From Octopus sinensis (taxonomy: Eukaryota): a stretch of 8,185 nucleotides of DNA. The DNA is taken from assembly GCF_006345805.1 (NCBI RefSeq), contig NW_021828564.1:1-8185 (forward strand), in the 5' to 3' direction. Below are positions 1,790 to 6,038 of the stretch, one piece after another. The first letter of the stretch is position 1. The number at the start of each line of letters is the position of its first letter. The translations under genes were made by a program, and so were the position numbers. The notes below the pieces were generated by a model that made no database searches, was not told the origin of the DNA, and was given only the letters and a program-made list of their open reading frames with translations.

Positions 1790-2170
1790 TATGATATATA
1801 TTATATTATATAAATATATATATCTAGGTATCTCTCTCCTCTATATACGTATGTATATATCGCTATCTATTATATATATATCTAGACAGAGATGGATAGG
1901 GTAGTGACAGATAGAGGAGCCATTACCTAAATTTGTATGAAACATATAGATACACAAGTGCCACTTATACAACATGTGTCGTGTCAGTTGTAAGCATATT
2001 TTACAATAGTATATATGTATATTTATATTATATGATATCTTAGTATACATATTATTATATAATATATATATATATATAATATATACATATATTATAGATA
2101 TACTATACTATTCAAGATATATATATAACATCTATATATATATACATATATCCCTATATATATATTATAT
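1790..2170. repeat. Degenerate (TA)n-rich low-complexity tract
   Basis: Frequently interrupted TA/TATA/TAGA runs. It forms the left flank of the tandem array. Confidence 0.85.
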
Positions 2171-2340
2171 AACTAAGCAATAAGGGTTTAGCAACGAGTT
2201 GCCTTACCACTCGATAACCGAATTTAGACACATATCCCGACCTTGTCATCAAGGGTTATAGCTCTTTCTTCGAACGTAAAGAGGTGTGAGCAGTAAGGCG
2301 TGATATTCGACACCTTGCCAATCTAATCATCACCTTTTTT

Positions 2341-2460
2341 AGTTATCCCGGTCACGTGTGAAATCAAGTTTTTATCGTTACAGTCATAAGAATTAAATAT
2401 TAAATCTTAAATAATTCTATCTTGACCGAAACTTCTTTCTGGTCTTCAGCGTATAATACT
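2341..2460 (-). ncRNA. Degenerate hammerhead ribozyme copy (array unit 1)
   Basis: Minus strand: AGUAUUAUACG-CUGAAGA (core 2449-2443 intact), long stem II, then the GAAA/stem III/GUC segment is corrupted (ACACGUGAC), then CGGGAUAACU. Confidence 0.6.
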
Positions 2461-2954
2461 ATAATCAAAATATTATATATTGAATTTTGAGATACCAGAA
2501 GGTCACCAACTCAACTCAGTTATCAGAGCGAGCTAAGAATCCGCAACTGGTATCACCACGAATTCAATTTGTGAATGAAACGTTGTGTCAACAGCCCCAC
2601 TTCCACACCTCGGTACCAAACCCAGATGCTGTGGTCATCTACTGAATAAATATATGTTATCCGTAATAATGAAGTGGTGAACATTAATTAATTTGGAACA
2701 CAATCACTTCACACACAGTACCACCAAAGTCGTCTTCGGCATGTAAAAGCCTCTTCGGGAAAATTTAAGTAATACTAACAATAAGGGTTTAGCACGCGGT
2801 TGCCTTACCACATACCGAATTTAGAATAGCAGTCAACGGTTATAGCTATTTCTTCTACTAAAAATAGGGAGATCTCAGTAAAAACAGAATTTGGAAGGCA
2901 AGACACAACAGGTAAGAGAGAATGAATTGACTGCAATCTATCATACATTTTTTT

Positions 2955-3067
2955 AGTTATCCACGGACGTCGTTTCGAAATCAAGTTTTAGGAAAGCATA
3001 AGAATTAAATATTACATAATAATAATTCTATCTTACCGAATTTCTGTTCTCTTCAGCGTAGAATACT
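2955..3067 (-). ncRNA. Type I hammerhead ribozyme with extended stem II (array unit 2, complete)
   Basis: Minus strand: stem I 5' arm AGUAUUCUACG (3067-3057); CUGAAGA (3056-3050); 73-nt imperfect hairpin closed by GAA/UUC (3049-2977); GAAA (2976-2973); CGACG-UC with GUC triplet; stem I 3' arm CGUGGAUAACU (2965-2955). 9 of 11 stem I positions pair. Predicted cleavage is between 2966 and 2965. Confidence 0.82.
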
Positions 3068-3540
3068 ATCATCATAAATGATTATAATTGAATTTTGAAG
3101 ATACCAGAGGCACAACCAACTCAGTATCAGAGCGAGCTAGAATCCGCAACTGGTATCACCGATTCAATTTGTGAATGAAACTATTGTGTCCACAGCCCCT
3201 TCCCACCCGTGTAGCAAAACAAGATGCTGTGGTCATCTACTGAGATAAAATATTGTTTATCCGTAATAATGATGGTGAAATTAATTAATTTTGAAAATTA
3301 TCAATTACACCAGTAGTCTTCGCATGTAAAAGCCCGCATTCGAGGAAAATTTAAGTATACAAGCAATAGAGGGTTTAAGCAACGAGTTGCCTTACCACAT
3401 ACCGAATTTATAAATAGCAGTCAAAGGGTTATAGCTATTTCTTCTACTGAAAAAGGGAGATCTCAGTAAAAACAGCATTGGAAGGCATACACAAACAGGT
3501 AAAGAGAATGAATTGACTGCAATCTATCATACATTTTTTT

Positions 3541-3600
3541 AGTTATCCACGGACGTACGTTTTCGAAATCAAGTTTTTAGAAACTAATAATTAAATATAA
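3541..3600 (-). ncRNA. 3' half of hammerhead ribozyme (array unit 3, truncated inside stem II)
   Basis: Minus strand: ...CUUGAUUUC-GAAA-ACGUACGU-C-CGUGGAUAACU, with palindromic stem III ACGUACGU and a GUC triplet. The CUGAAGA half is replaced by a (TA)n tract at ~3598-3618. Confidence 0.7.
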
Positions 3601-3977
3601 ATATTATATATATATATATTTTATGTTCCCAAATTTGTACCCACATGCATCTCTTTCACACTTTCTACGTATAAATATAAGTATATATGTGTATATACTC
3701 ACTTACGCACTCAAAGACACATGCACAGACCCAAATACGTATATATTTACATAGATACGTGTATCCCTGTATAGAATTGTTTTAAATCAAAGCTTTCTCA
3801 AGAACTGAAGTTTTCAGTATATTCTATTAAATGTGACATGCATTATAATGCTAGTATTTTTTTTTAGAGAATGTATTTATTGAATTTATCAGAATGATTA
3901 AGAATATGGTGCATTGTATTGCATAGAACGTGAATGGGGTATGTTATCTATGAATTATGCAAGTAGTATGTGAAATC

Positions 3978-4474: not shown

Positions 4475-4476
4475 AA

Positions 4477-5020
4477 GGCAACTAGCTACCAGAAACGTTA
4501 ACACGCCGGGCGAAATGCTAAGCAGTATTTCGTCTGCCGCTACGTTCTGAGTTCAAATTCTGCCGAGGTCGACTTTGCCTTTCATCCTTTCGGGGTCGAT
4601 TAAATAAGTACCAATTGCGCACTAGGGTCGATATAATCGACTTAATCCGTTTGTCTGTACCCTCTGTGTGTAGCCCCTTGTGGGCAGTAAAGAAGTAGGT
4701 ATTTCGTCTGTTTTTCCGTTCTGAGTTCAAATTCCGCCGAGGTTGACTTTGCCTTTCATCCTTTCGGGGTTGATAAATTAAGTACCAGTTACGCACTGGG
4801 GTCGATATAATCAACTTAATCCGTTTGTCTGTCTTTGTTTGTCCTCTCTGTGTTTAGCCACTTGTGGGTCGTAAAGAATTAGGTATTTCGGCTGCCGCTA
4901 CGTTCTGAGTTCAAATTCCGCCGAGGTCGACTTTGCTTTTTATCTTTTCAAAGTACCAGTTACGCACTAGGGTTAATTTAATCGACTATCCCCCTCTCCC
5001 AAAAATCTCAGGCCTTATTA
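4477..5020 (+). mobile_element. tRNA-derived SINE family A, tandem trimer (one head, three bodies)
   Basis: Head 4477-4524. Body units start gtatttcg at 4525, 4699 and 4883 (periods 174 and 184). Each has B-box gagttcaaattc and core gtcgactttgcctttcatcctttcggggtcgat..aagtacca, which resembles the MetaSINE-type central domain from memory. Units 1-2 end in tail A; unit 3 has an internal deletion and tail B. Confidence 0.93.
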
Positions 5021-5119: not shown

Positions 5120-5519
5120 ACTCTTTACTCTCTTTTACTCTTTTACTTGTTTCAGTAATTTGACTGTGGTCATGTTGGAGCACCGCCTTTAGTCGGGCAC
5201 ATCGACCCCAAGACTTATTCTTTGTAAGCCTAGTACTTCGTCCATCGGTCTCTTTTGCCGAAACGCTAAGTTACGGGGACGTAAACACACCAGCATCGAT
5301 TTTCAAACGATGTTGGGGAGACCAACACAGATATACAACATATACACTCACACACATATATACGACAGGCTTCTTTCAATTTCCGTCTACCAAATCCACA
5401 CAAGGCTTTGGTCGGCCCGAGGCTATAGTAGAAGGCACTTGCCCAAGGTGCTACACAGTGGGACTGAACCCGGAACCATGTGGTTGGTAAGCAAGCTACT
5501 TACCACACAGCCACTCCTG
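5117..5519 (-). mobile_element. Near full-length tRNA-derived CORE-type SINE (family B, octopus OR-like)
   Basis: Minus strand head caggagtggctgtgtggtaagtagcttgcttaccaaccacatggttccgggttcagtcccac (A and B boxes); CORE-like accttgggcaagtg; internal TG/TA-rich stretch; 3' tail of (GAGTAAA[A])n repeats at 5117-5147. The OR name is from recall. Confidence 0.88.
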
Positions 5520-5633
5520 ATTTGTACTAAAGAGTTAAATCATGACCAAAATTTCACAATTTCGTTTCCCAGCACAAGACTCTCACTCGACGAATTCAAT
5601 TATCGGATACAGACAATTATAAATGATTAGAAA

Positions 5634-5804: not shown

Positions 5805-6038
5805 ACCTATTTCTTCACTACCCACAAGGGGCTAAACACAGAAGGGACAAACAAGGACAGACAAACGGATTAAGTCGATTACATCGACCCCAGTGCGTAA
5901 CTGGTACTTATTTAATCGACCCCGAAAGGATGAAAGGCAAAGTCGACCTCGGCGGAATTTGAACTCAGAACGTAACGGCAGACGAAATACCGCTAAGTGT
6001 TTCGCCCGGAGGCCTAACGTTTCTGCCAGCTCGCCACC
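5805..6038 (-). mobile_element. Full-length monomer of SINE family A with 19-bp target-site duplication
   Basis: Reverse complement of the 4477-4700 unit. Flanked by identical tatgatgattgccaaccta at 5791-5809 and 6040-6058. Confidence 0.96.

Follow-up and report, generated by a model that had tools for sequence, protein, structure and literature searches.

The locus described here raises the question of whether a motif on the minus strand of a short Octopus sinensis contig is a genuine hammerhead ribozyme, and if so, to what kind of element it belongs and what is to be made of its long stem II. The stretch of DNA analysed (the window) is the entire 8,185-bp contig NW_021828564.1 from a genome of 2.72 Gb. 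A sequence-only reading had described, at positions 2955 to 3067, a hammerhead with a stem II rod of roughly 30 bp, for which cleavage as a dimer and recognition by Dicer or ADAR were proposed.

The minus strand from 2954 to 3068 contains every part of a type I hammerhead (Table 1). Stem I is laid out as 6 bp, a 2x2 loop and 4 bp, with UCUACG (3062-3057) pairing with CGUGGA (2965-2960); at core position N7, relatives may have any of A, G, U and C; the letters predict a cut between 2966 and 2965, and the 73 nt claimed to separate the two core strands are confirmed. The motif is therefore a genuine type I hammerhead motif, but the copy in the window is noisy and is not predicted to fold as one. 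As written, the whole motif folds no better than its shuffles (z -0.20), stem II by itself reaches z -0.17, with 215 of 500 shuffles equally good and a probability of 0.00 for its first four pairs, and within the whole array its first three pairs have probabilities of 0.002-0.003. The fourth pair of helix IIa is broken in this copy. The Rfam hammerhead models find no match in the window at E<=1, and dimer cleavage among the window's own three units was considered and rejected, the required stem I swaps having a probability of 0.0 with the letters as given.

Table 1. Features of the insertion and of its hammerhead motif, in window coordinates
Feature	Position	Strand	Basis
Single-armed insertion of family A, a putative retrozyme; 2.4 tandem non-coding units of ~600 bp	2172..3610	-	
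Ends of the insertion: 3' end at 2172, into (TA)n; 5' end truncated at ~3610, into (TA)n		-	
Target microsatellite, rich in (TA)n, adjoining the fixed 3' end of the element	2010..2171	.	
Unit 1, the last on the 3' side and very noisy; has CUGAAGA (2449-2443) and a corrupted 3' core strand	2172..2770	-	
Unit 2, full, ~92% identity to family units, mostly indel differences	2771..3356	-	
Unit 3, truncated on its 5' side at the AU-rich stem II apex; 3' hammerhead half only	3357..3610	-	
Unit 3 palindromic stem III ACGUACGU, one extra A ahead	3553..3560	-	
Unit 2 stem I 5' strand: UAGU, AU internal loop, UCUACG	3057..3068	-	
Unit 2 core strand CUGAAGA (C3-A9)	3050..3056	-	sequence
Unit 2 stem II region, 73 nt (typical copies 76 nt)	2977..3049	-	
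Stem II parts in the family: 4-bp helix IIa GAAA/UUUC, internal loop AGA/UGA, AU-rich distal arm			
Unit 2 core GAA (2976-2974), stem III ACGACGU (2973-2967; family ACGUACGU), C17 (2966)	2966..2976	-	
Unit 2 stem I 3' strand: CGUGGA, U1.7-A internal loop (2959-2958), ACUA	2954..2965	-	

The flagged motif lies in unit 2 of the array, and all three copies depart from the family unit: copy 2 by 15 substitutions and 27 indel events over 606 columns, copy 1 by 20 substitutions and 57 indel events, and copy 3 by 5 and 13, respectively. The corresponding figures for 58 other full units are 0-11 substitutions and 0-14 gap openings, most units having far fewer. Since the window is a whole small contig whose differences are rich in indels, and since short-read contigs agree with the family letters at many of the differing positions, the deviations are likely uncorrected long-read error, real decay being a possible alternative. 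The stem III ACGACGU, earlier taken for a structural variant, is sequencing noise on this account and was rejected as a genuine form: its 24-mer occurs once in the genome, in the window itself, as opposed to 1,179 palindromic copies, and the palindromic form appears at position 2971 at the loose ends of short-read contigs in three of four runs. The palindrome that had been noticed in copy 3 is present, with one extra A ahead of it, and the short-read contigs lack a base at 3560; that copy is truncated inside stem II and lacks CUGAAGA. In sum, the window's own copy adds nothing over the family.

The family itself is large. An exact 25-mer of the 3' core of family A has 1,179 copies genome-wide, and a 201-base query gave 1,817 first-look candidates, of which 40 were scored. 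Units elsewhere are ~600 bp long and mostly 98-100% alike, with stem II forms of 69, 76 and 83 nt that differ at the AU apex, the longer size class having 257 exact matches. Sister tandem families exist with shorter arms: B, with a 596-bp unit and a 60-nt stem II, and E (~60 nt) are 71-85% identical to family A; C has a 565-bp unit and a 31-nt stem II, and one relative has a stem II of 24 nt, groups C/D being more distant. Relatives with the same palindrome, G-C closing and a short stem II gave 0 exact matches, and 10 matches of intermediate length were set aside as degenerate or deleted copies of the ~60-nt group. The unit is non-coding (the longest stop-to-stop frame in the array is 60 aa), has a GC content of 0.348, and as a circular monomer is predicted to fold at -154 kcal/mol (z -5.3 against 40 shuffles) with 66% of its positions paired. 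Contigs from runs guessed to be RNA cover the unit, with a joint leading 600 nt back that is as compatible with a tandem as with a circle.

In a clean family copy, stems I and II are predicted to form with probabilities of 0.89-0.99, so that the hammerhead claim holds for the family where it fails for the fold of the window copy. Family copies have a closing G10.1-C11.1 pair and three stems around the core, with stem I open. Stem II, 76 nt in length, folds at -13.8 kcal/mol (z -2.46; 10 of 500 shuffles as good; pair probabilities 0.94-0.98), and comprises 24 bp, no helix exceeding 7 bp, in place of the rod of roughly 30 bp initially envisaged. It is indeed long and unusual, but in reality it is made up of three parts: a helix of 4 bp, an internal loop and a weak arm rich in AU, whose differences in length arise by slippage at the apex.

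Conservation was assessed in 130 distinct hammerhead sequences from four groups, with stem II lengths of 24-83 nt and the window copy left out; these were selected for their core, in group B also for helix IIa, and in most arrays for the 3' 25-mer, and their conservation is thus partly built in. U1.7 is kept in 125 of the 130, R..A at the base of the internal loop likewise in 125, and URA in 124. Pairing of the 4-bp IIa is intact in 68 of the 72 sequences from A and in 32 of the 33 from B. The core elements CUGANGA, GAAA and UH are present, and are unchanged in 156 of 169 full spans, a figure that is partly ascertained. Substitutions per 1,000 positions over 49 loci amount to 0 in the 5' strand of IIa (685 positions) and 1.7 in the first core strand, compared to 12.2 in the distal arm and 8.6 in the remaining unit. 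The covariation that had been proposed as a check is seen in stems I and IIa, and not in the distal arm: between families A and B, both partners have changed in pair 6 of stem I (UA/CG) and in pair 2 of IIa (AU/GC), and the covariation score of 16 hand-picked A and B sequences (0.082) was reached by 0 of 500 shuffles. The count of four double-change pairs was matched by 77 of 500 shuffles; relatedness inflates such scores, and the signal corresponds to approximately two independent events between related subfamilies. Pairs of the distal arm are invariant, broken or gapped, with no convincing covariation.

These patterns suggest that an internal loop, with a 5' purine and a 3' URA, replaces terminal loop 2 above a canonical 4-bp helix, and that its 3' A would dock on U1.7 of the stem I loop. 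The model for this prediction is the hammerhead of CChMVd(-), for which the available text of Dufour et al. (PMC2632901) describes in loop 2 an RNnA motif that engages the 5' U of loop 1 in a reverse Hoogsteen pair, and rates of 2.58 per min, versus 2.36 per min when shortened. The two systems have in common an extended domain II, an internal loop as loop 2, a 5' purine, a 3' A and the 5' U of loop 1; CChMVd(-) differs in being a viroid ribozyme in which loop 1 caps a hairpin and which has a 2:6 loop of asymmetric shape, whereas loops 1 and 2 of family A are both internal. Since CChMVd(-) combines an internal loop 2 with a domain II that can be shortened, the distal arm of family A is, by analogy, probably a dispensable passenger of variable length above the canonical docking site. 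A decoy hairpin at the arm base (GAAA-AGAAG-UUUC), noticed by eye in family A, is absent from B and was dropped.

An architecture of this type had been expected to escape motif searches, and it does: the Rfam hammerhead models give no match at E<=10 in locus L002, which holds three intact copies, and the 60-nt sister B reaches 22.3 bits, where the gathering score is 34. Abundant animal hammerheads can therefore be missed by Rfam when loop 2 opens into an internal loop and a long arm, and current retrozyme counts are likely underestimates.

The proposal that selection maintains the long arm as a substrate for Dicer or ADAR, through which cleavage would be regulated, can be weighed against the same measurements. 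A pre-miRNA forms a stable hairpin whose duplex is long, almost uninterrupted and conserved in length. The arm of family A does fold better than its shuffles, and the lack of matches for G-C-closed relatives with a short stem II implies that some arm is always kept; however, at ~-0.18 kcal/mol per nt (range -0.16 to -0.23), with a longest helix of 5-7 bp, a GC content of 20-28%, a length that varies from 24 to 83 nt and distal pairs that do not covary, it does not resemble such a precursor. No Rfam miRNA model matches within 2955-3067, and four short arm motifs and one core motif are absent from the available supplementary text of PMC9699675, which may be without the miRNA tables.

Regarding editing, the 45 variant sites shared within arrays include, on the ribozyme strand, 12 A>G versus 3 T>C changes (p 0.0045, uncorrected and from sites that are not independent), and the four differences from the family shared by the units of L125 (unit 5, 535, 556 and 564) are all A>G; singleton sites count 16 A>G and 12 T>C. 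The excess hints that edited templates were written back to DNA. Nevertheless, A>T changes are likewise asymmetric at array-shared sites (8 versus 2 T>A), so that the A>G bias may not be editing, and it is not concentrated in stem II, where 3 of the 12 array-shared A>G sites fall and ~2 are expected (28 of 170 As being located there). Four runs guessed to be RNA display A>G:T>C places of 1:0, 9:9, 15:2 and 10:1 (runs X17 and X18 being one sample), and 1 of 12 displayed A>G places lies within stem II; as unit positions 219, 437 and 556 are also genomic array variants, these places are no evidence of editing. A regulatory role for the arm through Dicer or ADAR is consequently regarded as quite improbable, and the passenger interpretation is retained.

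Stem III, on the other hand, bears out the dimer proposal, within the limits of nearest-neighbour predictions. A monomer would form a stem III of 2 bp at a cost of +2.4 kcal/mol, whereas the palindrome would provide an 8-bp duplex; the minimum-energy dimer is a domain-swapped double hammerhead (-57.2 kcal/mol, versus -42.6 for two monomers), and in a natural two-unit transcript the 8-bp stem III has a probability of 0.80-0.95 between units and of 0.002 within a unit. The hammerhead is thus predicted to cut only in pairs. Palindromic, dimer-type stems III are the norm for animal type I hammerheads, as described in the available texts of PMC4209133, PMC6765202, PMC7229834 and PMC3088659.

The manner in which the arrays spread is recorded in their ends, which were scored in 51 locus records (all clusters of the 25-mer on contig C1, the first five on C2, and others; two pairs overlap). 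The 77 scored 3' ends, one of them counted twice and one a locus-edge artefact, fall at unit ~593-600 in 50 cases, at ~93-113 in 24 and elsewhere in 3, and 75 of the 77 continue into TA repeats, a context that would mask target-site duplications. The 5' ends (n=76) are scattered, and do not pile up at the cut site (2 of 76 within 399-409, 1.4 expected). Both end classes are represented in 17 of 21 two-ended inverted insertions. Arrays of up to 15 units read through every cut site, and rare variants are common to all or most units and to both arms of single insertions. Matching these ends to PLE anatomy as given in the available texts of PMC3846280 and 10.1101/2021.04.23.441226 reveals the hallmarks of that type: 5' truncation, an inverted truncated copy, a one-sided tail and a microsatellite target. 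In the part of PMC11167929 that is available, a PLE protein in purified form is described as cleaving AT-rich DNA on both strands and extending them, with internal priming at two sites that define the tail. The arrays have likely been copied by the enzymes of a Penelope-type retrotransposon.

The nature of the template is less clear-cut. Shared rare variants would result from repeated copying of a single monomeric template, likely a circle, and equally fit the copying of an already uniform, uncut multimer. The latter possibility, in which the hammerhead would be slow or inactive (hampered, for example, by its arm) and circles would not be the template, could draw on the long arrays that cross every cut site and on the lack of a truncation peak there, as well as on two precedents: the PLE hammerhead (PAc) required protein and was dispensable for in vitro insertion, according to the available text of PMC11167929, and 8 of 9 predicted Xenopus retrozymes showed no in vitro cleavage in that of 10.64898/2026.07.22.740005. 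It is nonetheless unlikely, in view of the maintenance of the core, of helix IIa and of the two tertiary positions across groups that are 71-85% identical to A (B, E) or farther (C/D), and of the unchanged core in the great majority of full spans, with the ascertainment mentioned above. A reading with a circular template would proceed as follows. In transcripts of two or more units, pairing of the 8-bp palindrome would give rise to domain-swapped double hammerheads that release 600-nt monomers, and these would be ligated into circles that cut poorly alone; a PLE reverse transcriptase/endonuclease would nick the (TA)n target, reverse transcription would start internally at unit ~598 or ~101, and the enzyme would run round the template to yield 5'-truncated and often two-armed arrays. 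Taken as a whole, the reading of the window as a noisy unit of a young non-LTR retrozyme, moved by a PLE, with a passenger arm, dimer cutting and a circular template, is considered probable. A more elaborate joint version is doubtful: that the arrays record rolling-circle reverse transcription, in which the PLE primes both (TA)n strands on one circular RNA, at two sites separated by ~100 nt, and every unit inherits the A-to-I edits of that molecule, the circle stemming from a dimer-only hammerhead with an internal-loop/internal-loop contact.

The fetched loci contain no autonomous PLE whose pLTR matches the unit. By tblastn, RT/EN pieces are present in only five locus records and none is joined to the unit; RT/GIY-YIG-like pieces beside arrays end on their own terms, give a Pfam GIY-YIG E of 0.0033 (below cut-off) and have no match to the Pfam RT domain. 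PLE-like ORF pieces in L032, L037/L038, L021 and L110 were examined as autonomous partners and rejected, having different ends and a different hammerhead. These observations also bear on whether the repeat could be the isolated pLTR of an autonomous PLE, or else a satellite spread by local unequal crossover. Retrozymes derive from pLTRs (available text of 10.64898/2026.07.22.740005), and a rare ORF-linked copy could be missed among fetched loci that represent the best non-autonomous copies; no fetched array, however, runs into an ORF, nearly all 3' ends lead into TA repeats, and local crossover alone would hardly produce fixed ends, inverted arms and a spread across many contigs; this pair of explanations is the most improbable of those weighed. 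Family A has the sequence features of a non-LTR retrozyme, with circular expression and cleavage as predicted properties.

As far as the available texts of Cervera and de la Pena 2020 (PMC7229834) and Li et al. 2026 (10.64898/2026.07.22.740005) go, metazoan non-LTR retrozymes are likewise dispersed head-to-tail non-coding arrays with a GC content of 35%, one type I hammerhead per unit, a short palindromic stem III, a dimer fold and a PLE link. The 600-bp unit exceeds the 170-400 nt of the 2020 paper (PMC7229834) and lies within the 51-972 bp of the 2026 one (10.64898/2026.07.22.740005). Family A is unlike these known elements in its 76-nt stem II, where loop 2 is internal and not terminal, and in its regular two-armed (TA)n insertions; its expression as circles is a prediction. 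With the hammerheads of PLE pLTRs and with EN+ PLEs, as they appear in the portions available of PMC4209133, PMC3846280, PMC11167929 and 10.1101/2021.04.23.441226, it shares a palindromic stem III, 5' truncation, an inverted 5'-truncated copy, a one-sided tail and AT-rich or microsatellite targets. It differs in the lack of an ORF, in a canonical 6-bp stem I, a canonical 4-bp IIa and loop motifs in place of a minimal hammerhead, and in a tail of ~100 nt instead of 30-40 bp, its partner PLE not being found among the fetched loci.

Neither this family nor an animal type I hammerhead whose stem II measures 60-80 nt is described in the literature compared, although subscription papers, Repbase and supplements may contain such an account; in the available texts, the 'long helix II' of PMC13725137 is 6 bp, and the main text of PMC13282606 does not contain the word 'ribozyme'. 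With respect to these sources in the form available, two features are new, namely the combination of a 60-83-nt stem II and an internal loop 2 in a type I hammerhead of an animal, and the regular record of two-armed insertions; a tertiary contact between two internal loops, as predicted here, is undescribed in them. The natural series of arms of 24-83 nt offers a ready test of tertiary docking via internal loops, while the young, near-identical arrays lend themselves to testing whether retrozyme circles template PLE enzymes, and are also suited to testing the origin of PLE two-armed insertions with a one-sided tail.

A number of further observations concern the arrays and their surroundings. 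Rare variants are shared by both arms of the inverted insertions in L105/L106, L128, L096, L124, L115, L094 and L103, and a single insertion at C1 95,521,787-95,532,856 forms a palindrome of ~11 kb. Families B and E (L051-L092, L134-L143), with a 60-nt stem II, are older and have the same two end classes. Sister C (L032:2115-3430; L039-L050; L033:4308-4378; 1,671 first-look candidates) has the same palindrome, but with A opposite A in the basal position of stem II and with GUU as its cut site, and is likely a slower ribozyme. A 9-bp hairpin in the GAAAUAGCU/GCUAUUUC region (L013:1174-1212, unit ~514-546), upstream of the fixed 3' end, is partly common to families A, B and C and is a candidate recognition signal; near it, a cluster of partial A>G places occupies unit 511-527 in possible-RNA contigs.

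Broken PLE-like elements with RT and GIY-YIG, located in (TA)n, adjoin arrays at L037:8500-10000 with L038:1-2300, at L032:4800-6760 and in L110; their tail measures ~37 nt, as judged by eye, and their hammerhead is short, with ACCGGU as its palindrome. In the window, a near-perfect inverted repeat at 754-942 (85-nt arms, 98%, 19-nt spacer) is followed by CTGATGA (994-1000) and then GAAAC, and may be another two-armed remnant of PLE type. The window also contains copies of SINE-like repeats, putative octopus SINEs, at 492-625, 4476-4991, 5150-5520 and 5805-6031, including a 174-bp tandem at 4525-4949, the copy at 5805-6031 being inverted.
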